From an uncultured cyanobacterium (GTDB taxonomy: Bacteria; Cyanobacteriota; Cyanobacteriia; Cyanobacteriales; Nostocaceae): a stretch of DNA of 64,000 nucleotides. The notes under the pieces are model-generated. The model did not search any database, was not told the DNA's origin, and worked only from the letters and a program-made list of their open reading frames with translations. Below, piece by piece: positions 324-15,835 of the stretch. The position numbers and the translations under genes are program-made. The stretch's first letter is position 1. Each line of letters begins with the position of its first letter. The stretch spans positions 3,328,001 through 3,392,000 of the forward strand of contig OY970166.1 of NCBI GenBank assembly GCA_963706595.1, given 5' to 3'.

Positions 324-1190
324 TCACTCCCTGGTTTCGATATCGTATAACTGGCATAAAGTGAGCAGTTTTTGTTTTAGGCGATCGCGCACATTTTCTG
401 GCATAATCACTACACAGTCTGGCGCATATTGCATCACTTCACGACTAAACCAAAAGGTACTGGATACACGCCTGATAACTCGCCGCACTTTGGGTTTATC
501 TGGTAGCCATTCATTGATATTGTCTTCTGGTTTCGCTTTATAGCCAAAAGCCAAGCCACCAAATATGTGCATTTCTACTTCTATCTCATCTAAGTGATTA
601 CGCCACTCCCCAGGAATAGAAATCACCGCCGCATCTGTAATTCTATCTAAACGCAAACACCAGTTATGAATTAGTTCGGGGATATCAAAGTTTCCTTCTG
701 TTTCTTCACACCAGCAATCAAGATATTCCCGCTTTTCGTGGGGATTAAGCTTTGCATGGCGGACGGTAAAATTAAATATACGCCCTGCTGGATCTTGATA
801 GGAAAGCTGAAATGGTTGCTGTCGCCGGATATAGTTATCTATTTGTAAGCGCCAAGCTGGGGGGAGGTTTTCTAGGAAACCTTGAATTTCGGTTCGCAAT
901 GGTATTGATAGTTCGCTGCGTTCGAGAAGTAAATTGGCAATAATTTGAGCTTGTTCTATTTGTCCAATATCGGTTAATGCACCAATACATCGGTGTAATG
1001 CCCTAATGCGGGCTTCTGTCCAATCATTATTATTACCGATAAGTAGCTTTCTTTGAGCGATCGCTTCTACCAGTTTCGAGATATTCGGGCGATCGCCCCA
1101 CATCATACCAAATTGTAAGGCGATCGCTTCTAGTTCCGCTTTATCGCGTTCTGTTAAAGAGAGAGTTATAGACTGACCTTTCCGACTCAT
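324..1190 (-). CDS. WYL-domain transcriptional regulator with N-terminal RHH-like domain, CRISPR I-D associated (Sll7009-like)
   Basis: SITLSL..DKAELEAIA N-terminus; FQLSY..REYLDCWCEE..LRLDRI WYL core; divergent from cas3. Confidence 0.85.
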   Translation of the reverse strand: MSRKGQSITLSLTERDKAELEAIALQFGMMWGDRPNISKLVEAIAQRKLLIGNNNDWTEARIRALHRCIGALTDIGQIEQAQIIANLLLERSELSIPLRTEIQGFLENLPPAWRLQIDNYIRRQQPFQLSYQDPAGRIFNFTVRHAKLNPHEKREYLDCWCEETEGNFDIPELIHNWCLRLDRITDAAVISIPGEWRNHLDEIEVEMHIFGGLAFGYKAKPEDNINEWLPDKPKVRRVIRRVSSTFWFSREVMQYAPDCVVIMPENVRDRLKQKLLTLCQLYDIETRE

Positions 1191-1286
1191 ATTTATACGG
1201 ACACTTTATATGGATATATCTTGCCAATCTTTATTTTGCATGGCAATATAAGAAGTAACAACCAGTTACGGACACTATTTAAGTTT
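1191..1286. promoter_or_regulatory. Divergent WYL/cas3 promoter region with candidate operator repeats
   Basis: TACGGACACT direct repeat at 1196-1205 and 1267-1276; TTGCCA-N14-TGGCAA inverted repeat at 1221-1246. Confidence 0.55.
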
Positions 1287-3468
1287 ATGTCCGAAGAATA
1301 CAAAATTACTCTCAAGCCTGTTTATTCTCAAACCGTCCCCACACCTGACGGAGTGAAATTACCTAAAGATTGGTCGCTTTCTTGGCATCAATTAGCTACA
1401 TTAGAAGCACTACGCGATCCAAATATTGATGTAGTATTCAACACAGCCATGACAGGCGATGGTAAAAGCTTGGCTGCATATTTAGAAGTTCTCCAAAGTC
1501 AATTTTCCGCCATTGGACTTTACCCAACTAATGAACTCGCCCGTGACCAAGAAACGCAAATTAGAGGATATATTGAACAATTCCAGCCAGAAGATGAGCC
1601 GCGTGTAGTTAGATTAAGTGGGGCTGATTTAGAAAATTATGCCGAAAATGAAGGATTGAAAAAAGCAGCAGCAATTTCTACCCTCACTAGCCAAAGAGAG
1701 GTATTACTCACTAACCCCGATATTTTTCACTACTTGCATCGAGGGGCTTATATAATTCGTGGCGATAGCCCAGATAAGTTATGGGGCAGAATTGATAAAG
1801 ATTTTGACTTATTTATTTTTGATGAGTTCCATGTTTTTGCAGCCCCTCAAATTGCCAGTGTAATTAACACAATGTTGTTAATTCGCTGTACAAATCGCCG
1901 CAAAAAATTTCTGTTTCTCTCAGCTACACCAGACACAAATTTAATTGGTAGATTAGAACAGGCAGGATTTCGTTGTCAAGTTATTAATCCTATTGCCGAA
2001 AATAAATACCAATTTCCCGAAACACCAGAAGAAGGACAGCAACTGCAAACACAGGGCTGGCGGCAGGTAGTCGCGAACAATCTCATTGAATTTTATTCCT
2101 TTAGAACCTGCTTTTAAATCTTCGGAAACTTGGCTAAAAGAAAACAGTGATTTAATTTTAGCTCAATTTCAACAGTATCCAGGTAGTAAAGGAGCAATTA
2201 TTCTCAATTCAATTGCAGCAGTCAAACGCCTAACGGTATTCTTTCAGGAAATATTCAAACCTTATAAATTAACAGTAGGAGAAAATACCGGACTTTCGGG
2301 AAAAGGCATAAAAGAGCAAAGTTTGATGGCTGATTTAGTTATTGGCACTAGCACAATTGATGTGGGGGTGGATTTTAAAATCAATTTTCTGATTTTTGAA
2401 TCATCAGATGCAGGTAACTTTATTCAGCGTTTGGGGCGATTAGGCAGACATGAAGGCTATGAGAAAAATGGTCAAATAATTAAATTTGAAAAGTTTACAG
2501 CTTTTGCCCTTGATGCCTAACTTTTTAGTAGAACGTTTATTTCAGGTAGATTCAGCACCCTTAGAGGTAAATAGTATATATGAGCGTCCATGTTTTCATA
2601 ATACAATTAGTGAAAATTATCGACAAATAAATGATTTTCGTGGTTATTATCGCCGTTGGGGAACTGTACAATCATTTTGGCTGTATTATCAATTGAGCGA
2701 TCGCACAATTAAACAACAGTATGCCCAAAGCCGAGAAACAGTTTCAAAAAGCCTGTGAGGAAGTCTTTGGAAGCAAGCTGAATCCATAGCTGGACGTAGT
2801 TTCAGGATGGGCGAAAGAATGGAAAGCACTGTCAGGTAAATCAGGAAATCCCATCGCTGACGATGCGGCTAGTTTTCGAGGTTCTAGTCCTTTGCAATGT
2901 GGTATTATACGATTTAACCGAAGAAAACGAAGCAGACAGGTTTAAAACCTACGATTTACCGGGAATTTTGGGCAATTTGGACATTGAGATGTGGACAGAG
3001 GCGGGATTTGTACGGACACTTAAAGAAACCGCACAACGCACCGGACAACCCATAGCCAAAGGTAGATTTGCTCATTGTCTAGCATTTATGAAGTTGCGTT
3101 CCTACCGCGAGGAACGGCTGAACTGGAAATTTACATATCCTGGGGACTTACAGCCAATAGCCGACGCTTGGAAAGTTCAGGTTTTAACTGGCGTGGAAAT
3201 TTGGCAACCTGACAATCAATGGATTGGTGCAATTAACAAACGACTGAAGAAGGAAGGTTTGGTTTGTTATGTAATTCGCCGTCCTGTGTCTGAGGTGCGG
3301 ATGCGGTTACGGCTACCGATGCACTTTCAGATTTATCCCATTAGTGATCAGTATAGCTTTCATGATGTTAGTGCGCCGTATGCGATCGCCTTTGGTCACT
3401 CTGCACTGCTGCTAGATACCCTCGCTTACACGTTTAAAAGCACAGGAGATGAGATATGGATTGTTTAA
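1287..3468 (+). pseudogene. cas3: Type I-D Cas3' helicase, split by several frameshifts as sequenced (possibly sequencing indels)
   Basis: Motifs TGDGKS, YPTNEL, DEFH, LSATP, TSTIDVGVD and QRLGRLGRH spread over ORFs 1221-2117, 2086-2520, 2486-2758 and 2863-3468; no HD domain; likely start ATG 1287. Confidence 0.9.
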
Positions 3469-3469
3469 C

Positions 3470-3584
3470 GTTTCAATCCCTGATAGGGATTTTAGTGATT
3501 GAAAGTCTAAAGGCGGAAGAACGAGCAGTAGTACGTTCACAGGGTATTTTTTCAATCCCTGATAGGGATTCAATGAATTTAAGC
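3470..3584 (-). CRISPR. Single-spacer mini-array (crRNA-like regulatory RNA) with two degenerate I-D repeats, opposite orientation to the main array
   Basis: Repeats 3470-3505 and 3549-3584 keep AATCCCTATCAGGGATTGAAA of the main repeat on the minus strand; 43-nt spacer 3506-3548. Confidence 0.9.
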
Positions 3585-3646
3585 GCTTTAGACTTATACT
3601 ATAATTATAGTACACAAGTTTTACACAGGGTAAAAAAGTTTCCCTG

Positions 3647-3689
3647 GTTAATACAATGTGAACTCTATGTACTGTTCATTATTCTGACT
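3647..3689 (+). promoter_or_regulatory. Predicted target of the mini-array crRNA: GTT PAM plus partial protospacer overlapping a TACAAT -10-like box upstream of ORF 3700
   Basis: PAM GTT 3647-3649; guide nt 1-14 match 12/14; after a 2-nt offset guide nt 19-38 match 15/20. Confidence 0.8.
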
Positions 3690-3699
3690 AATCAGGAAA

Positions 3700-3996
3700 A
3701 TGCAAAATCGAAATGCCGACCCCCACCTGACCAACCTTATACTCAATGCTGATTTTGAGCATCTTAACCAAGCATTGACTCTACGCCTATTTGATGAAGT
3801 CCGTGAAAACCGACGTAGTATTAGTGCGTTAAAAAGACAATTAGACGCGCTAAATGAAGATATATTACACATACTTGACAATCAAGATATGGAAATAAGC
3901 GAGTGTAAGGATCTGATTCTGAATCGTATTAGAAATCAGACTAGCGAAATTGAAGAGTTAAGGAGTCTCGTTAATTGGTATTGCATACCAGACTAA
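3700..3996 (+). CDS. Hypothetical 98-aa coiled-coil protein
   Basis: ATG preceded by AGGA; heptad-like Leu/Ile pattern; no family recognised. Confidence 0.6.
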   Translation: MQNRNADPHLTNLILNADFEHLNQALTLRLFDEVRENRRSISALKRQLDALNEDILHILDNQDMEISECKDLILNRIRNQTSEIEELRSLVNWYCIPD

Positions 3997-4055
3997 AATG
4001 AGATTTTCAACGTATTAAATGAGACAAGCCTTTACCGCCAATAACTACTGCGGCT

Positions 4056-5075
4056 ATGAATAAACCAATTTCAGACGAATACAGAAATTTACTAATAGAA
4101 GTAAAACAACGCATTCGTTCTGCCCAATATGAAGCACTGAAAGCAGTCAATAAAGAACTCATTGCCCTTTATTGGGATATTGGAAAGATGATTGTTACTC
4201 GACAACAGAATGCTACTTGGGGTAAATCAGTGGTGGAACAGTTAGCAAAAGACTTACAAGCAGAGTTTCCTGGGATTAGTGGTTTTTCTACGGCAAACCT
4301 TTGGCGAATGAGGCTTTTTTATGAAACTTATACCAAGAATGAAAAACTCGCACCATTGGTGCGAGAAATTGGATGGACTCACAATATAGTCATTTTAGAA
4401 AAGTGCAAAGATGACTTGGAACGAGAGTTTTATATCAAAATGACTCGCAAATTTGGTTGGACAAAGAATGTTTTGATTCACCAAATTGAAAATCAAACTT
4501 ATGAAAAGACTCTGTTGAATCAGACTAACTTTGATCAAACTGTTCCAGCAGAGATCCGTAATCAATTAAAACTAGCTGTCAAAGATGAATATACTTTCGA
4601 TTTCTTGGAACTAGCAGATGAACACAGCGAACGACAGCTAGAAGAAGCGATTTTGGCAAGAGTTGAACCATTTTTACAAGAAATGGGCGGGATATTTGCT
4701 TTTATCGGTAGTCAATATCGACTAGAAATTAATGATGAAGAATATTTCATAGATATTTTATTATACCATCGCTGTTTAAAGTGTTTGGTAGCAATAGAAC
4801 TAAAAATTGGTAAATTTTTACCCGAATATATTGGTAAAATGCAGTTTTATTTGGCTGTATTAGATGACACGGTAAAATTACCTGATGAAAATCCTTCCAT
4901 TGGTATAATTCTTTGTAAATCTAAGCAGAGAACCATCGTTGAATATGCATTAAAAGAATCTAATAAACCAATTGGTGTAGGAACTTATCAAATAGTTTCA
5001 ACATTGCCTGAAGAATTAAAAAATCAACTTCCAGACCCAGAGCAAGTTGCAAAACTGCTAGAAGGTTTTGAATAA
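4056..5075 (+). CDS. DUF1016 / YhcG-family PD-(D/E)XK nuclease domain protein
   Basis: YWDIGKMI, KDEYTFDFL, IDILLYH..IELKIG and GKMQFYL..PSIGIILCK motifs. Confidence 0.9.
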   Translation: MNKPISDEYRNLLIEVKQRIRSAQYEALKAVNKELIALYWDIGKMIVTRQQNATWGKSVVEQLAKDLQAEFPGISGFSTANLWRMRLFYETYTKNEKLAPLVREIGWTHNIVILEKCKDDLEREFYIKMTRKFGWTKNVLIHQIENQTYEKTLLNQTNFDQTVPAEIRNQLKLAVKDEYTFDFLELADEHSERQLEEAILARVEPFLQEMGGIFAFIGSQYRLEINDEEYFIDILLYHRCLKCLVAIELKIGKFLPEYIGKMQFYLAVLDDTVKLPDENPSIGIILCKSKQRTIVEYALKESNKPIGVGTYQIVSTLPEELKNQLPDPEQVAKLLEGFE

Positions 5076-5168
5076 ACACTCGAATTTATAAAATTAATTA
5101 TGTGGTTAATCAATATCCGTTTTACGTGCGATAAATAAATACCTATTTAATTACATTGGATGTAGATA

Positions 5169-8100
5169 ATGAATAAAAAAACAAAACCCACCGCAAAAAA
5201 TCAACAACTGTCTTTGTTTGAAAATAATACTGAAGAAACGGAAGAATTAGAAGATGATTTCTTAAATCAAGACTTTGGCTTTGATGGTGATTCTTCAGAC
5301 CGTACCATTGAAAATGACGGCGAATTACTCACACTCAAGTTATTGCGAGAAGCAATTCAGGCGGAAAATCCTGATGATCAAGTAATGGCAGATTTTGCCG
5401 AATATGTTTTACCAAACTTGCTAAAGATAGCCATTGGTGTCACGGCTAAAGGAGGTAAATTCTTTGATGAAATCGACCAACAGCGAGAAGCAGAAGGTAA
5501 AACTAAAGTTAGGCGAGATAATGCTGCTGACCAATCTCTAAATACTCACTTACTCAATGGGTTATTTCCCGCTAATTTAATAGAAAAGCGGTTAGAAAAA
5601 CTCAATACCACAGTGCGGCGAGTGGTGAAAGAAAGAGAACGCCGCTTAGTAATTGCTGGGTTTATTTTACATGATTTTGAAAAATTTCCTGATGCACCAG
5701 AAGATTGTCGCAAGTTACCGTTAGCAGAACATCGCCAAATTATTGATCAAAAAGTTCGCCAGTTAGGACTTGATAAGTTTATCAACCCAGATAACTCAGA
5801 AGCTTATCGAGAGTATTTAGATGATTTATTGTGCATGGCTTATAATGCTCAACGACGCTGGGATACTAACTGGAATTTCTCGGAATTTGGCTTAAATCCT
5901 GTTCTCAAAGACCGTACCCTTCGCAGTCTGTCTGATTTAACTTGTTTGGCTGATTCTCTCGCTTCAATTGTTAAACATCCTCAAGATGCAGAAAATACCA
6001 GACTCCAAGAAATTATCCATAATTTGAGTGATGGACAGTTGAAATTTACCTATCACAGCATTGCTGAGAATAGAGGTGTTTTAACTAATGTGGTGAATAA
6101 TGCTTTAATTAAAGCTCATACAAGTCTTAACACTGATGAAAATATCTACTATGAACCTTTGTTATATCTGCCAACAGGTGTAATTTATTTAGCTTTGCGT
6201 AATGCGCCACCTATTGCACAAGCAGACTTATCAGACCGTGTAGTTGATAGTATTAAATCACTTTGTGCAGGTCAATTGCGCCTCAGACAAACAGGATTTG
6301 GTAGAGATGGTAAAGGTATGAAATATGCCGAATATTACAATTTATTCTTTGATGATTTAGGTTTAATGCGAGTAGCTTTAGATGCTACATTACGTATATT
6401 GAATCCAAACAAAACTTCTGTTGCTCAAAGTCGCAGTGAAAATCTGATTAAATTTCAGCAAAAAAATGTTTTATCTCCTGATTATAACTTTAACTTTACA
6501 GATGATATCCGCATCGACCAAATAGCCGAATTTGGTGATTTAATCAGTCGGAAGATTTGGGAAGAAACAGTTAATCGCATTGATGTTGCTAGGAAGAAAG
6601 ATAAAAAACTGCCAGCAGTTCCAGATTTAGATTTAACTCACAAAGTGGCAGAGTTTTGGAACTTAGCAGAATATTTACCCCCCATTCGAGAAATTCAACG
6701 CATTAATGAAAGTCTCAAAGAAAATAAGTTAAAAGGAAATACTGGCGGAGTACCTTATGAATGGTATTACCTCGCAGCGAAATATCTCGAACTTCATCCT
6801 GGAATTGAAAATGTCCGCGAAACTTGTCAGCAAGTTATCGATTACTTAGCAACTTTGATTTCTCCGATTATTTCTCAGTATGAATTACCTGATGGGTGGG
6901 ATGATTTAAGGCTTTGGGTAAATCGCGTTGTCATGTTACCAAACACAAATCAAGAATTATCACCCGAAACTCAAGTTCAGACATTTTTAGAGGAGTTAAA
7001 TAACTATAATGCTGCCAAAAAACCAGGACGAGGAAAACAACTTATTTGCTCAATTTCTCACTCAGCTTATACTGTGACTGAACAAATGGAATCAGCAGTT
7101 TTATTTACGCCGCAGGTTTATACAAATAAGCAAATGTTAGGAGGTTCTAACGCCAAGCGTAATATTTCTAGTATTGCTGGTGTAGAGATGATGCTGAGGC
7201 AAATATTAATGAATCAAACTCAAGCAGTTGGGAAACGATTTGAGGATGGTAAATATCGCTATCTCTACTTTTACCCGACTTATTACTTCACACCGGAAAC
7301 TAATAAGTTTTTGCAAAAAGCTTACAACGGTATTGCTCAAACTCGCTTTGATACCAGCGTCCGTAATCATTTTATCAGTAAGGATTTACAAGCCGATTTA
7401 TCTAGAGAAAATTACCAAAGTGTAGATAGTTTCTTAATTGACGAAAATCTCCAGGCTGACAAAGACCGCACATTTAAACTTTCTTATCCAGAAGACCAGC
7501 CTTTAACATTTTACTTCATGGCACTGCCACCAGGAAGAGATAGCACAGATACAGAATCTTGGGTAATGCCAACTTGGTTAGCCTTTGCTTTTCCGATGAT
7601 TTTAGATGTGAAAACTGTGGTTTCTGAGTCGCCAATTCCACCTTTTAACGATGGTTCTGAATTTGAGGAAAGCGTTTTCTTAGATAGTGCGCCTCATGCT
7701 TTCCGGGCTTTGGTAAAAAGAGATAGATTTCGTCTTGACTATATTCTGGAAGGTTGGCAAGAAAACGGTATTCAATACCCTGCACCCTTGAATGTGCTTA
7801 CAGCCGCTTATGCCATTCATTTAGATGTGAATGCTAGACAAGGTAAAACTGGTTACGATGCCAATTGGGGGAGATTTACAGAACTAGCAAAGGATTTTGA
7901 AACCAGTTCTTTGTATGTGTTTGCTTATCTCAATCGTTGGGTGCGTAACCAAGGAGTAGAAACAGCACGCATTGAGAAAATTAGGCTTTATGTCTATCAT
8001 TTTTACCCTTGTTTTGACCCTTATGTTAAATATGACAAAAATATGGAGCAATTAATTGTGGGAGAAGAATCAAGCCTAAATCATCCGAAAAAAGTAACAG

Positions 8101-8507
8101 ATTTATACCGCCGATTTTACCGAGCAAATAAGCGTTATAATCCCAAGTCTAATGCTGTGTTGAAACCAATAGATATCGCTGCTGAAACTATTCTTAAAGC
8201 TGACTCAAGTGTGTTTCATGGAGAAACATTAGTGGCGGCTGTAGCGGCTGAAGTCTTCAAACTCATGGATCGTGTTCATTCTTCTACTGCTGAAGGACGT
8301 TGGGTAATGAGTAAACGGGAGGAAGAACGACAAGCTGTTCTGGAGTTTGCTAAATATTTTGTACAGGAGGTATTTGAGAAATCTTTTGCAGGCGATCGCG
8401 CACGTTTAGCAGGTCGTCAACTTAACTTAATTCGAGATACTTGTGAATTTCTTTATCGCCTTGAAGATGACAAAGAAAATGCAGAAAAACTTGTAGAAAC
8501 CGAATAG
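5169..8507 (+). CDS. cas10d: Type I-D large subunit Cas10d (Csc3) with HD domain
   Basis: DQSLNTHLLNG and LHDFEK HD motifs; 1112 aa; position upstream of csc2 and csc1. Confidence 0.93.
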   Translation: MNKKTKPTAKNQQLSLFENNTEETEELEDDFLNQDFGFDGDSSDRTIENDGELLTLKLLREAIQAENPDDQVMADFAEYVLPNLLKIAIGVTAKGGKFFDEIDQQREAEGKTKVRRDNAADQSLNTHLLNGLFPANLIEKRLEKLNTTVRRVVKERERRLVIAGFILHDFEKFPDAPEDCRKLPLAEHRQIIDQKVRQLGLDKFINPDNSEAYREYLDDLLCMAYNAQRRWDTNWNFSEFGLNPVLKDRTLRSLSDLTCLADSLASIVKHPQDAENTRLQEIIHNLSDGQLKFTYHSIAENRGVLTNVVNNALIKAHTSLNTDENIYYEPLLYLPTGVIYLALRNAPPIAQADLSDRVVDSIKSLCAGQLRLRQTGFGRDGKGMKYAEYYNLFFDDLGLMRVALDATLRILNPNKTSVAQSRSENLIKFQQKNVLSPDYNFNFTDDIRIDQIAEFGDLISRKIWEETVNRIDVARKKDKKLPAVPDLDLTHKVAEFWNLAEYLPPIREIQRINESLKENKLKGNTGGVPYEWYYLAAKYLELHPGIENVRETCQQVIDYLATLISPIISQYELPDGWDDLRLWVNRVVMLPNTNQELSPETQVQTFLEELNNYNAAKKPGRGKQLICSISHSAYTVTEQMESAVLFTPQVYTNKQMLGGSNAKRNISSIAGVEMMLRQILMNQTQAVGKRFEDGKYRYLYFYPTYYFTPETNKFLQKAYNGIAQTRFDTSVRNHFISKDLQADLSRENYQSVDSFLIDENLQADKDRTFKLSYPEDQPLTFYFMALPPGRDSTDTESWVMPTWLAFAFPMILDVKTVVSESPIPPFNDGSEFEESVFLDSAPHAFRALVKRDRFRLDYILEGWQENGIQYPAPLNVLTAAYAIHLDVNARQGKTGYDANWGRFTELAKDFETSSLYVFAYLNRWVRNQGVETARIEKIRLYVYHFYPCFDPYVKYDKNMEQLIVGEESSLNHPKKVTDLYRRFYRANKRYNPKSNAVLKPIDIAAETILKADSSVFHGETLVAAVAAEVFKLMDRVHSSTAEGRWVMSKREEERQAVLEFAKYFVQEVFEKSFAGDRARLAGRQLNLIRDTCEFLYRLEDDKENAEKLVETE
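8058..8507 (+). CDS. cas11d: Predicted internally initiated small subunit Cas11d (149 aa), in frame within cas10d
   Basis: GGAG at 8045-8048, 9 nt before an in-frame GTG at 8058; size fits described Cas11d. Confidence 0.6.
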   Translation: MGEESSLNHPKKVTDLYRRFYRANKRYNPKSNAVLKPIDIAAETILKADSSVFHGETLVAAVAAEVFKLMDRVHSSTAEGRWVMSKREEERQAVLEFAKYFVQEVFEKSFAGDRARLAGRQLNLIRDTCEFLYRLEDDKENAEKLVETE

Positions 8508-8559: not shown

Positions 8560-9570
8560 ATGTCATTTCTCAAAACTGTTGAATCCAAATTATTTCAATC
8601 TGAAATACCCTATAAACCAATGGGTAAATATGTCCATTTTCTCACTGTCCGCATCACTGAATCTTATCCTCTCTTTCAAACAGATGGAGAATTAAATAAA
8701 GCCAGAGTACGAGCCGGAGTCAAAGATAAGACTACAATTAGCCGTTTGTCAATGTTTAAACGCAAACAGTCTACACCAGAGCGTTTAGTTGGACGGGAAT
8801 TACTGCGTAACTATGGCTTGATGACTGCGGAAGAATGCGAATATAACGTTAGTTTTGCAATGGATAATCCTGATTGCATCATTTACGGTTTTGCTATTGG
8901 TGATTCTGGTTCTGAAAAATCTAAAGTTGTAGTAGATACCGCATTTTCAATTACATCTTTTGATCAATCACACGAAACATTTACTCTTAACGCTCCCTAT
9001 GAAAATGGTACAATGGCTTCTAAGGGTGAAAATGGTTCTAAACCGGGTGAAGTCACCAGTCGAATTAATCAGCAAGATCATATTATTCCACAGGTTTTCT
9101 TCCCTAGTATTGTCACCCTCAAAGACCCCACTGAAGCTAGTTTTCTTTACGTTTTTAACAATATCCTCAGAACGCGCCACTATGGAGCGCAGACTACCCG
9201 TACAGGTCGCGTTAGAAATGAGTTAATTGGTGTTGTATTTGCAGATGGAGAAATTACCAGTAATCTCCGTTGGACTCAAGCAATATATGATCAAATGAAG
9301 GCACAAAATACAATCAATCCTCCTGAACCTTTGGATGAAGATGATGTAATTACTGCTGCTAAAAGTGCAATTGAGGCTTTAATGGCTGATGAGTTTATTG
9401 TGCATACTGATTTCATTGGTGATGCTTTTTCACCTCTACTAAATGAAGTTAAAAGCATAGTGGGTGATGAAACAGGAATTAAGGCAGTTTTAGAAAAAGC
9501 TGATGCAGAAGCGAAAAATTATGCCAGTAAACATATTAGCAAAAAGAAAACTGCTGCTAAGGCTAAGTAA
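8560..9570 (+). CDS. cas7: Type I-D Cas7 (Csc2)
   Basis: RLSMFKRKQSTPERLVGRELLR, DCIIYGFA and YGAQTTRTG motifs. Confidence 0.93.
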   Translation: MSFLKTVESKLFQSEIPYKPMGKYVHFLTVRITESYPLFQTDGELNKARVRAGVKDKTTISRLSMFKRKQSTPERLVGRELLRNYGLMTAEECEYNVSFAMDNPDCIIYGFAIGDSGSEKSKVVVDTAFSITSFDQSHETFTLNAPYENGTMASKGENGSKPGEVTSRINQQDHIIPQVFFPSIVTLKDPTEASFLYVFNNILRTRHYGAQTTRTGRVRNELIGVVFADGEITSNLRWTQAIYDQMKAQNTINPPEPLDEDDVITAAKSAIEALMADEFIVHTDFIGDAFSPLLNEVKSIVGDETGIKAVLEKADAEAKNYASKHISKKKTAAKAK

Positions 9571-9575
9571 CAGCT

Positions 9576-10283
9576 ATGGCTATAATCTACCGATGTCAAT
9601 TAGAACTACACGACAGCCTCTATTTTGCGACTCGTGAAATTGGGCGACTCTACGAAACAGAGCCGATAATTCATAATTACGCTCTTTGTTATGCACTGGG
9701 TTTAGTTGATAGCGAAATCTACTCTACTACGGTGGCTGAAGAACATTCCTATCGCTATTTTTGCCCTGAACAAGTGCCAAAATATGAGGAGCATTTAACC
9801 CCACTTAATCAACAGGGGATTTATATTACTCCGGCTCGTTCTCTCAAGCATTCAGCCATTCTCAATACCTGGAAGTATGCTAACAACAACTACCACGTTG
9901 AAATGGAGAAAACACAGAAGAATATTCCTAGTTTTGGCAGAGCAAAGGAAATTGCGCCAGAAAGTCAATTTGAGTTTTTCGTAATTTCTCAAAAACAAGT
10001 TAAATTACCAAAATGGGTTCGTTTGGGTAAATGGATGAGTAAGGCTGAGGTGACGGTTGCAGAGTTACCTAAATCTAAAACTATTTCAGGTGTATTTACT
10101 TGTAAATATCCTTTAAATCCTTTAGATGTGATGTTTACTCATCAAGTTATTAGCTATGATGTGGTAAATATGCCTCCAGTTAGTCTGATTCAAAATGTGC
10201 AAATGCGCGGTGAATACTATCAGTTTGAGGGTATTCCAGAATTAAAGCTTCCGGCTAGGATGGAATATCGTTTTCAAGGTTAA
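9576..10283 (+). CDS. cas5: Type I-D Cas5 (Csc1)
   Basis: LYFATREIGRLYETEPIIHNYALCYALG and RLGKWMSK motifs. Confidence 0.92.
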   Translation: MAIIYRCQLELHDSLYFATREIGRLYETEPIIHNYALCYALGLVDSEIYSTTVAEEHSYRYFCPEQVPKYEEHLTPLNQQGIYITPARSLKHSAILNTWKYANNNYHVEMEKTQKNIPSFGRAKEIAPESQFEFFVISQKQVKLPKWVRLGKWMSKAEVTVAELPKSKTISGVFTCKYPLNPLDVMFTHQVISYDVVNMPPVSLIQNVQMRGEYYQFEGIPELKLPARMEYRFQG

Positions 10284-10559
10284 TCATTTGGCTTCTTGCA
10301 AAGGTCTTTTTTAGAAAGTTGAAACTGCGGTTTCAGTTAATAAATTAGTGCTTTTGCAGGAGGCGTATTCACAAGGTTGATGCAAAGGAATGAAGTTCTC
10401 TTTATTCTATTTGTGTTGTGAAGATGAACGAACCGCCAAGTCGCCAAGTGCGCCAAGGAATGACGGAGAAGATTTTAGGTTCGCGCGGGAGTGTGTCTGC
10501 AAGATTTATGATTACTGGTAGATATTTATTTTATTCTTCTATTGCTCTCTATACTGACT

Positions 10560-11171
10560 GTGAAACACTTTCAACAACAACCCAACGCTTTCCCTAGCGA
10601 ATACCTAAATAATTTATGGGGAGAAATTCAAGCTTGTCGCTATTTTGCTATCAATAATCTCAACCGCGATTTTGTCGGGACGAAGGGATTTTCTGTAGTA
10701 TTCAGGCGATCGCACATCCCCACAGTACAAGAAAAGTTCCCCTACTTCAAATCATACCTCGATTTGGCTCTGCAACCGGGTTGTAATGCTTTTTACCTCA
10801 ATCCGTTACAACTCAAGGAAGGTTCCCGTGTAGACCCGCACATTGACCGCTCGTTGCGTTCTTACTGCAAAACCATTGAACCGCCGGCAGTTGTCAGCGT
10901 TCTTTATGTGCGCTTACCTGAAAATATGGAAGGGGGAGAATTGGTACTGAAGTCGCAGAAACGCCAACTGGGACAAATTAAGCCCCAGGTAAATACTTTA
11001 GTTTACTTCCAAGGTGATTTAACCCACTCTGTCAACGCTGTGAAAACTCCGGGAAATCGCTTGAGTTTGGTTTGTGAACAGTATAGTTTGAGTGAAGCGG
11101 AACTTGCAGAAATCCCAGAATTTACTGTGGAATCAAGAATTGTTCAGTCCACAACAAAAAAACGCAAGTAA
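10560..11171 (+). CDS. 2OG-Fe(II) oxygenase superfamily protein inside the cas operon
   Basis: HxD (PHIDRS), GGEL, distal H (LTHSV) and R (NRLSLV); likely GTG start at 10560. Confidence 0.85.
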   Translation: MKHFQQQPNAFPSEYLNNLWGEIQACRYFAINNLNRDFVGTKGFSVVFRRSHIPTVQEKFPYFKSYLDLALQPGCNAFYLNPLQLKEGSRVDPHIDRSLRSYCKTIEPPAVVSVLYVRLPENMEGGELVLKSQKRQLGQIKPQVNTLVYFQGDLTHSVNAVKTPGNRLSLVCEQYSLSEAELAEIPEFTVESRIVQSTTKKRK

Positions 11172-11261: not shown

Positions 11262-12089
11262 ATGCCTCATAGCTTAGTTCTCAACCTACTTCCGCAATCG
11301 TCTATCCCATCCCAGTTTCTCACAGGGAGACATCTGCACGCACTATTTTTGACCCTTGTTAGTTCTGTAGATCACGCATTAGGCGATCGCCTACATGATT
11401 CTACCGCAGATAAAGCCTTCACCCTCTCACCCCTACAAACTAATTTCCCGTCTCAGGGAACTAGGGGAATATCTAAATTGCAACACTCACATCAACAACC
11501 CATTTCCGCCGGAACCCCTTGTTGGTGGCGCATTTCTCTCTTAGATGACACACTTTTTAGCGAACTTACTCAACTCTGGCTGAATCTTAACCCCAATCAT
11601 CCTTGGCATCTTGGCCCTGCTGACTTGTATATTACCAGCATTCAAGGCACACCCCAATCTACCCAACCCTGGGCAAATGCCTGTAGCTATACCCAATTAT
11701 ACGAGCAAGCCAGCGATCGCGATCGCGCCATTGACTTTATTTTCTCCACACCTACCGCCTTTCGCCAAGGAAAATTTGACACTACCCTTCCTACGAGAGA
11801 ATGTGTTTTCAATTCCCTGCTTTCCCGGTGGAATAAATATAGTGGAATCGAATTTTCTCAATTTTCCATCGAGTCAATATTTCCCTCCTTTGTCAACATT
11901 CGTACAGAAATATTAGCAGACTCCCGCAGCAAATTTATCGGCATTGTCGGAGAAGTTAATTATCGGATTTTAGGTGAAATTGAACCCATACAAATTAAAC
12001 AAATTAACGCTTTAGCCGAATTTGCTTTATATGCAGGTGTAGGACGAAAAACACCAATGGGTATGGGGATGATGCGGCGACGACATTAA
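11262..12089 (+). CDS. cas6: CRISPR-associated endoribonuclease Cas6
   Basis: GRHLHALF, FSTPTAFRQ and C-terminal GVGRKTPMGMG loop. Confidence 0.95.
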   Translation: MPHSLVLNLLPQSSIPSQFLTGRHLHALFLTLVSSVDHALGDRLHDSTADKAFTLSPLQTNFPSQGTRGISKLQHSHQQPISAGTPCWWRISLLDDTLFSELTQLWLNLNPNHPWHLGPADLYITSIQGTPQSTQPWANACSYTQLYEQASDRDRAIDFIFSTPTAFRQGKFDTTLPTRECVFNSLLSRWNKYSGIEFSQFSIESIFPSFVNIRTEILADSRSKFIGIVGEVNYRILGEIEPIQIKQINALAEFALYAGVGRKTPMGMGMMRRRH

Positions 12090-14362: not shown

Positions 14363-15353
14363 GTTCCAATTACTAATAATCCCTATCAGGGATTGAAACC
14401 AATGATTATGAAGCTGCTGCTATGGTTACAGCCTTCCAATTACTAATAATCCCTATCAGGGATTGAAACCAAAATTAAGGCAGAGGTTTCAATGTAAGGT
14501 TGAAAGTTCCAATTACTAATAATCCCTATCAGGGATTGAAACTTATCTTTGTATTTGTCGGGTAAAACACTTAACAGTTCCAATTACTAATAATCCCTAT
14601 CAGGGATTGAAACAAATACTTAGGGCAAATGCTAGCGGGTGAATTATCTGTTCCAATTACTAATAATCCCTATCAGGGATTGAAACTTTAGTATCCACTT
14701 GTTTCAGCAAACACTCGCTTAAGTTCCAATTACTAATAATCCCTATCAGGGATTGAAACACTATAATTTAATAGAAGAAAAGTGGGGAGACTCAGTTCCA
14801 ATTACTAATAATCCCTATCAGGGATTGAAACAATGGCATATCTTCATCCTCTTCTGTTGGTTCTGGGTGTTCCAATTACTAATAATCCCTATCAGGGATT
14901 GAAACTGAAGCCACGTATGAATCTGGAAATTTTGTATTCAAGTTCCAATTACTAATAATCCCTATCAGGGATTGAAACTAAGCAATTTGACCGTGAGCGG
15001 GGGACAGGTGACACGTGTTCCAATTACTAATAATCCCTATCAGGGATTGAAACCGCCGACTCTGAAGGTGAATGGGTAGCTTGGATTGGGCATCGTTCCA
15101 ATTACTAATAATCCCTATCAGGGATTGAAACGCCAGTATTCAGAGGTAAGCTCATCATTCCAATCAAGTTCCAATTACTAATAATCCCTATCAGGGATTG
15201 AAACGGGCAAATTCACGATGGCTTGCCACAGGCTACCAGTTCCAATTACTAATAATCCCTATCAGGGATTGAAACAGCAGTTCTTTTCCTTGTATTTGAA
15301 TGTATATTTGCCACATGTTCCAATTACTAATAATCCCTATCAGGGATTGAAAT
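14363..15353 (+). CRISPR. Type I-D CRISPR array, 14 repeats and 13 spacers
   Basis: 37-nt repeat GTTCCAATTACTAATAATCCCTATCAGGGATTGAAAC; spacers 33-41 nt; repeat 2 starts with C; last repeat ends GAAAT. Confidence 0.98.
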
Positions 15354-15477: not shown

Positions 15478-15835
15478 GAGGATGTTTTAAAAGTAGTTAG
15501 CTGTAATGTTAAGCACGAGTCAATCCCCCCTAGCCCCCCTTAAAAAGGCAGGGCTGTTTCATTCCATCAGGAGGGAGGATTTGTCAATATCATTAGGGAT
15601 AATTTTTGGGACAGAAGTCATGGAAAACCTACATTTCAATCCAAAAAATTCAAATTTTTCTCAGGATATTTAGAGCGATTGCTTTAAATATCCCTTGACA
15701 TAATAAGCCTTTGAGGGAATGAAACAGCCCTGCCTTAAAAAGGGGGGAACTAGAATCAAAGTCCCCCTTTCTAAGGGGGATTTAGGGGGATCTAAAACGT
15801 TTTGCTACTAAAAAAAAGACTTTTAAAACATCCTC
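15478..15835. mobile_element. MITE with IS5-like ends, carrying a nested insertion
   Basis: TIR GAGGATGTTTTAAAAGT / ACTTTTAAAACATCCTC; TTA on both flanks. Confidence 0.75.
15549..15732. mobile_element. 184-bp MITE, IS4-like, nested in the previous element
   Basis: 17-bp perfect TIR CAGGGCTGTTTCATTCC; 11-bp target duplication CCTTAAAAAGG at 15538-15548 and 15733-15743. Confidence 0.85.

Follow-up and report, generated by a model that had tools for sequence, protein, structure and literature searches.

The analysed window, a 64,000-nucleotide stretch of cyanobacterial DNA, begins with a type I-D CRISPR-Cas locus in which a WYL/WCX regulator gene is followed by cas3', a two-repeat mini-array, a 98-codon open reading frame (orf98), yhcG and cas10d. 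The locus continues through csc2, csc1, a 2OG-Fe(II) oxygenase gene, cas6, cas4, cas1 and cas2 to an array of 14 repeats, and its individual features are as follows.

324–1190, minus strand: WYL/WCX-domain regulator, divergent from cas3' (Pfam WCX, E 4.8e-6)
1221–3468, plus strand: cas3' (type I-D helicase) pseudogene, in four frames, with TIGR03158 matches on two pieces
3470–3506, minus strand: mini-array repeat B, the 3' repeat of the putative crRNA-like RNA (Rfam CRISPR-DR5, 45 bits)
3507–3548, minus strand: mini-array guide (spacer), 42 nt
3549–3585, minus strand: mini-array repeat A, the putative source of the 5' handle, with a degenerate 5' half (Rfam CRISPR-DR5, 30.7 bits, below the gathering score)
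3600–3609: palindrome TATAATTATA, read from the sequence, a candidate -10 box from which the mini-array could be transcribed on the minus strand
3647–3649 and 3650–3663, plus strand: GTT PAM and partial protospacer, matching the guide 5' end at 12/14 positions
3694–3697, plus strand: AGGA, 2 nt before the orf98 ATG
3700–3996, plus strand: orf98, ATG start, the first gene past the target site, encoding a 98-aa acidic protein predicted to be a single helix
4056–5075, plus strand: YhcG/DUF1016 PD-(D/E)XK nuclease, 339 aa (PADLOC PDC-S02)
5093–5170, plus strand: relic of a HepT toxin gene, last 26 codons with an internal stop (tblastn, E 7e-4), abutting the cas10d start
5169–8507, plus strand: cas10d (TIGR03174), intact, with full-length matches in relatives
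8560–9570, plus strand: csc2/cas7 (TIGR03157), intact, with full-length matches in relatives
9576–10283, plus strand: csc1/cas5 (TIGR03159), intact, with full-length matches in relatives
10542–11171, between csc1 and cas6: 2OG-Fe(II) oxygenase (PADLOC 'CAS-associated 2OG', E 2.8e-84)
11262–12089, plus strand: cas6, needed to process the mini-array RNA
14363–15353, plus strand: main CRISPR array of 14 repeats, oriented opposite to the mini-array

The regulator gene is kept in 16/16 related loci (tblastn), and the oxygenase gene is also found in several relatives. A degenerate repeat-like copy lies at 15708–15728, 372 nt after the main array's final regular repeat.

An earlier note on this DNA had placed orf98, with a mini-array, between cas3 and cas10d, and our annotation confirms that position, with cas3' ending at 3468 and cas10d starting at 5169. 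The note had overlooked that yhcG also lies before cas10d and that cas3' is a pseudogene. The open frame itself is a real gene: its homologues share the same start and the same position, and in loci of four different guide families the start and the two termini are conserved. Pairwise dN/dS values of 0.19–0.43 among five 98-codon copies, compared with 0.05–0.13 for the adjoining YhcG gene, indicate that orf98 is under purifying selection. The AGGA element named in the earlier note is present, but it lies only 2 nt from the ATG and is absent from relatives.

The encoded protein is acidic (pI 4.84), hydrophilic and soluble, with neither a membrane segment nor an enzyme domain. AlphaFold2, run with a 25-sequence alignment, predicts a single helix spanning residues 19–94 (mean pLDDT 88.8), so that the description of the protein as a coiled coil was fair; it is probably an oligomeric coiled coil. 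Searches of Pfam and NCBIfam gave no match to any Cas family, as had been claimed, and together with PADLOC and PHROGs they placed orf98 in no family beyond coiled-coil noise. The single PADLOC match, to BrxC, was at chance level (E 0.016), and no Pfam family, KilAC included, was found at E ≤ 0.01. Structure-based searches agree: a PDB profile search returned just coiled-coil matches, all with E ≥ 0.02, Foldseek of the model against the PDB returned 0 matches, and the ESM Atlas search gave no lead (best score 0.85). We rejected the reading of orf98 as a Cas11 small subunit, because the model is one 76-residue helix and not a bundle and because no Cas family matches; Cas11d arises from within cas10d. 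Three overlapping open frames were likewise set aside as by-products, namely 3456–3752, which spans the mini-array, has no family and is not retained where the guide differs, and the antisense frames 3412–3615 and 3648–3881, which have no family.

Homologues of orf98 are few. Among 5.8 billion protein clusters there were three close homologues, and among 1.84 billion scanned representatives six matched at E ≤ 0.001, including a 2998-aa coiled-coil protein. A profile search collected 39 clusters, all 'hypothetical', from Nostoc, Calothrix, Cylindrospermum and Scytonema; the family includes a protein of Calothrix sp. PCC 6303. Searching genome contigs with the single orf98 protein gave no match, and searching them with a closer orf98 alignment recovered eight loci, all already known. 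Relatives were not found in phages (tblastn, E ≤ 1) or plasmids (tblastn, E ≤ 0.01), and no longer or fused forms came to light in a search for them, weak evidence though this is. Within the same family of cyanobacteria, 17/389 genomes, including this one (16/388 others), contain an orf98 match. In 16/16 relatives the homologue lies in a type I-D locus, past cas3' and ahead of cas10d, whether or not YhcG intervenes, and further members of the family occupy the same slot in L043, L076, L099, L101, L119, L050, L053 and L083. The co-occurrence of homologues with mini-arrays, which the earlier note had proposed as a check, was found, with the family confined to cas loci beside the mini-array slot. 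By these searches, the orf98 family has members only in Nostocales, and there only in this slot.

The mini-array consists of two repeats around a 42-nt spacer and starts directly past the cas3' stop, with repeat B beginning 2 nt after it; the 3' half of repeat B is identical to the main-array repeat. The mini-array repeats score on the minus strand and those of the main array on the plus strand, and judged by its repeats the mini-array has its canonical orientation on the minus strand and diverges from orf98. A plus-strand reading was rejected because not one of the 73 mini-array loci offers a target for the reverse-complement guide. The first 14 nt of the guide match the GTT-flanked site at 3650–3663, 50 nt before the orf98 ATG, with two adjacent mismatches at positions 6 and 7; in relatives the mismatches are non-adjacent, and position 6 is usually among them. 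According to the available text of a study of type I-D (PMC8216271), GTT and GTC are the preferred PAMs, positions 6, 12 and 18 do not count, and a mismatch at position 6 is tolerated. None of 5000 shuffled seeds reached the GTT-flanked 12/14 match, and the 5.57-Mb genome contains just two GTN-flanked sites that match the guide at 12/14 or better, the other one beside a poorer GTG.

A second guide match at 3621–3634 (minus strand, 10/14, 9/14 in relatives) is PAM-less and was treated as non-functional; it may be the vestige of a second operator. Between mini-array and target sits TATAATTATA, which as a palindrome could be read as a -10-like box on both strands, and relatives carry TATAGT at the same place. 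A consensus promoter scan did not pick up this candidate box, nor any plus-strand promoter-like site between 3590 and 3700; with 6 sites across the region against 6.7 expected from shuffling, the scan is uninformative.

To place this arrangement among related loci, we searched the same family with the cas3' C-terminus, which matched in 200/389 genomes, and took the 3.4 kb downstream of cas3' for the best 87 further matches (all E ≤ 1e-96). The window and 15 earlier loci bring this set to 103; weaker matches from other clades (≤66% identity) and 51 further matches were left out. Two repeat cores lie directly past the cas3' stop in at least 73/103 loci, which is a lower bound, since the repeat pattern missed variant repeats in L050, L053, L083, L088, L091 and L093. 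In 65 of these 73 loci, the 5' end of the guide matches a GTN-flanked site (at least 10/14) within 300 nt downstream, and no guide target was found in the other 8/73. Controls gave 0/73 with the reverse-complement guide, 1/73 with shuffled seeds and 0/73 with guides swapped between families.

The guides fall into about eight families, each with its own matching site. Four of them (starting AATAC, ACGAG, ACACA and ATGAC) occur with the orf98 family, each again matching its own site, and in 14/14 orf98 loci with a two-repeat mini-array the best match lies on the plus strand beside GTT or GTC. Guide and target therefore co-vary across guide families. In L026, cas3' follows csc1, yet the mini-array, a 13/14 GTT-flanked target and orf98 stand directly before cas10d. 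Other loci have lost parts of the arrangement: L032 retains an intact orf98 and intact Cascade genes, but only a single repeat, that is, a dead mini-array, and no target, and deletions of 355 bp in L023 and 1.73 kb in L057 each removed parts of the mini-array together with orf98. The closest relatives, four loci of the same genus whose cas3' C-termini are 97–98% identical (L034–L037), have no orf98, one of them carrying another cassette and three no mini-array, which implies that turnover is faster in the gap between cas3' and cas10d than in the cas genes.

The first open frame past the target falls into several unrelated families, at least four of them of small proteins. It encodes a 65–75-aa HTH protein in 29 loci (PADLOC 'HTH', E 8e-25), a member of the orf98 family in 19, an acidic 62–69-aa protein in 12 and a 110–124-aa protein with weak HTH matches in 4, with a few other types besides. 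Each guide family is paired with one first-gene family, and 71/73 mini-array loci carry a small first gene of such a family. Cargo further downstream varies independently of orf98 and includes DUF433/DUF5615 pairs, MNT/HepT pairs and YhcG. The latter matches the PADLOC candidate defence family PDC-S02 (E 5.8e-154) and occurs without a two-repeat mini-array in 17/30 YhcG loci, while orf98 occurs without YhcG in L027, L030, L031 and L032.

The HTH cassettes carry two GTN-flanked sites matching the guide, arranged in tandem about 26 nt apart in 13 loci (for example L038, L041 and L044) and back to back on opposite strands in 14 (for example L045, L049 and L054); most orf98 cassettes have one target site, with a second in L099. 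In both the HTH and the acidic family of first genes, the proteins have C-termini of the form ...LLAA, ...LILAA or ...KLAA (L038, L041, L034, L046, L042). Such endings resemble the ssrA degradation tag, a hint that these first genes may encode short-lived proteins.

Within the locus, cas3' alone has decayed, and all other cas genes, from cas10d through cas2, are intact. Aligned with two intact genes of the same genus (blastn, 94.6–94.7% identity), cas3' shows six single-base indels, five insertions and one deletion, near 2071, 2513, 2736, 2782/2783, 2798 and 2904; in same-genus relatives the open frames are 725–763 aa long. By comparison, cas10d has 0 gaps in 1084 nt against one relative. A second orf98-bearing locus (L020, genome G169) has a truncated cas3', with the N-terminal third gone and an open frame of 418 aa, and intact Cascade genes. 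A decayed cas3' beside intact Cascade genes may be a hint that Cascade is kept for a switch rather than for DNA cutting.

The earlier note had offered, as an alternative to a regulated orf98, that the regulated unit is the downstream cas10d operon. This gains support from the absence of any predicted plus-strand terminator in 3380–5250 and from HepT, the last cargo gene, which ends 40 nt or less from the cas10d start in 47/101 loci and of which a relic abuts cas10d here. The target site is on the same strand as cas10d, 1.5 kb upstream of it. Together, the missing terminator and the abutting HepT suggest that the operator probably also governs Cascade's own genes, in which case the two alternatives are not mutually exclusive. 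A separate cas10d promoter may lie inside the cargo.

The sequence comparisons show the anatomy of the locus, the co-variation of guide and target, the linkage of the cassette and the selection on the protein; transcription of the mini-array, binding by Cascade, repression and co-transcription with cas10d are inferred from them. The guide match, co-variation and cassette linkage, taken together with confinement to the slot, strongly support the reading of a crRNA-controlled promoter ahead of orf98, as the earlier note had predicted, and the neighbouring mini-array very probably guides the locus's own type I-D complex to the site before orf98. We propose that orf98 is the payload of a cassette, situated between cas3' and cas10d, that combines an inverted mini-CRISPR with an operator and a first gene. 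The mini-array would be transcribed from the minus strand, and Cas6 would cut out one crRNA-like RNA with the 5' handle from repeat A and the 42-nt guide. Cascade (Cas10d, Csc2 and Csc1) loaded with that RNA would bind the GTT-flanked site at 3650, and since pairing ends after about 14 nt, no cleavage would be licensed. The bound complex would instead block transcription into orf98. With no terminator after orf98, the block probably extends to yhcG and, if these genes are co-transcribed, to cas10d-csc2-csc1, so that orf98 output would be inverse to the amount of working Cascade and Cascade would limit its own synthesis.

We consider this regulatory circuit of mini-array, Cascade and operator likely to operate. 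For the product of orf98 our guess is a non-lethal role that depends on dose, as a modulator or as a signal that Cascade is low, which we find somewhat more likely than a lethal toxin because orf98 appears to be co-transcribed with the genes of its own repressor. The complete proposal, in which orf98 is the payload of the cassette and has a non-lethal role, has in our view about an even chance of being correct.

The strongest competitor is a toxin of the kind known as CreP, as the earlier note had suggested by analogy with CreTA-type systems: orf98 would arrest growth or kill, Cascade and the mini-array RNA would keep it silent, and loss of Cascade or an anti-CRISPR would release it, leading to addiction to Cascade or to aborted infection. 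The architecture matches that of CrePA, in which a 103-aa toxin gene sits past the CreA target in the cas3-csy1 gap, and orf98, like the CreP homologues, is confined to its slot. At least four unrelated small proteins alternate in that slot, as interchangeable toxins would, a pattern to be expected of a generic harmful payload more than of a specific modulator. The joint deletions in L023 and L057 fit what addiction logic would predict, and the decay of cas3' alongside intact Cascade genes is the pattern expected if only Cascade were guarded. On the other hand, orf98 resembles no known toxin, lacks a KilAC domain, is acidic and hydrophilic without a membrane segment, and has no relatives in the phages or plasmids searched. 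L032 keeps intact orf98 and Cascade genes with one repeat and no target, and through its probable co-transcription with the genes of its repressor orf98 would be made whenever Cascade is. We regard toxicity of orf98 as possible, if unlikely, and a toxin acting in the CreP-like manner as unlikely by a little more. A tentative variant, to which we give slightly less credence again, is that the family is a non-KilAC effector arresting growth when Cascade fails, one of at least four swappable payloads of the cassette. If this were true, Nostocales would be exchanging cassettes of mini-CRISPR, operator and gene between loci, and the cassette would have outlived interference, with cas3' dead and Cascade kept only to restrain the payload.

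It is improbable that orf98 is a mere passenger, a neutral or unrelated gene caught between the operator and cas10d in a circuit that is simply Cascade autorepression of the CreR type. This would account for a cassette that is always upstream of cas10d and in the same direction, even with cas3' elsewhere (L026), for cargo that abuts cas10d, and for a region that is a hotspot of gene turnover, both here and in the available text of Shmakov et al. 2023. A passenger, however, would hardly explain a small first gene in 71/73 mini-array loci, a family found nowhere else, with all members from the 17/389 genomes in the slot, or the purifying selection on orf98 and its conserved start and termini.

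Less probable still is that orf98 together with YhcG or toxin-antitoxin pairs forms an anti-phage module restrained by Cascade, by analogy with the CRISPR-supervised immune systems (CRISIS), whose available text describes the same logic between cas3 and cas5c (10.1101/2024.12.27.630466). The PDC-S02 match of YhcG and the DUF433/DUF5615 and MNT/HepT pairs behind orf98 in relatives are consistent with such a module; the four orf98 loci without YhcG, the 17/30 YhcG loci without a two-repeat mini-array and the independent variation of downstream cargo argue against it. That the mini-array is array debris with a chance match and no regulation, for which one could point to the agreement of just 12/14 bases, is hardly credible given the co-variation across guide families with clean controls, a target site nearly unique in the genome and a mini-array position past the cas3' stop conserved in at least 73/103 loci.

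The proposed switch, with orf98 as its payload, belongs to a class that has been predicted in print. In its available text, Shmakov et al. 2023 report a computational prediction of type I-D mini-arrays regulating cargo between cas3 and cas10d, together with a clade of type I-D Cas3 in whose loci mini-arrays occupy this position; the cargo comprises toxin-antitoxin pairs, regulators and others. The orf98 locus shares with that class the subtype, the position, two repeat-like units and a predicted target upstream of variable cargo, as well as a conserved mini-array position with varying spacers and targets; its target is partial and PAM-flanked. The same text, in its available part, does not single out the orf98 family, the strict pairing of guide and first gene or the decayed cas3'. 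Our literature search found neither bench work on a type I-D mini-array nor an account of the orf98 family. In what could be accessed, the CRISIS text (10.1101/2024.12.27.630466) contains neither 'I-D' nor 'cyanobacteri', a December 2025 review (PMC12737573) contains neither 'I-D' nor 'cyanobacter', and a preprint on Anabaena Cas6 contains nothing on mini-arrays. In the literature found, bench-tested CRISPR-repressed modules are only of types I-B, I-C, I-E, I-F and V-A.

Among those modules, as described in the accessible parts of the respective papers, CrePA of Acinetobacter type I-F is close in layout: a gene of about 100 aa lies past a PAM-flanked partial target of the two-repeat CreA in the gap after cas3, and homologues of the 103-aa CreP toxin are almost confined to the cas3-csy1 gap (10.1101/2024.01.05.574328). 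It differs in that the phage-derived CreP is a KilAC domain whose toxicity has been demonstrated, whereas orf98 has neither KilAC nor phage relatives, and in that our locus is of type I-D, with a GTN PAM, in cyanobacteria. CreR RNAs autorepress cas operons of types I-B, I-E and V-A (10.1101/2023.03.10.532045, available text), and as with CreR a degenerate mini-CRISPR here appears to direct the effector to a promoter ahead of the genes that encode it; in contrast to CreR, a small non-cas gene and usually more cargo, probably co-transcribed, precede cas10d. In the type I-C CRISIS, too, non-cas cargo separates cas3 from the first Cascade gene and is controlled by a crRNA-like RNA; the mismatches of that RNA fall at positions 6 and 12 and at the PAM-distal end (10.1101/2024.12.27.630466, available text). 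These systems have a single repeat unit behind cargo of proven defence enzymes, whereas here an inverted two-repeat mini-array lies ahead of the cargo and the first gene encodes a bare predicted helix. Beside these systems, this locus and its approximately 70 relatives represent a natural type I-D series in which one operator design is combined with varied guides and at least four unrelated first genes, so that the purpose of the payload is testable in culturable cyanobacteria. If orf98 proves not to be toxic, this would suggest that such switches also have another use.
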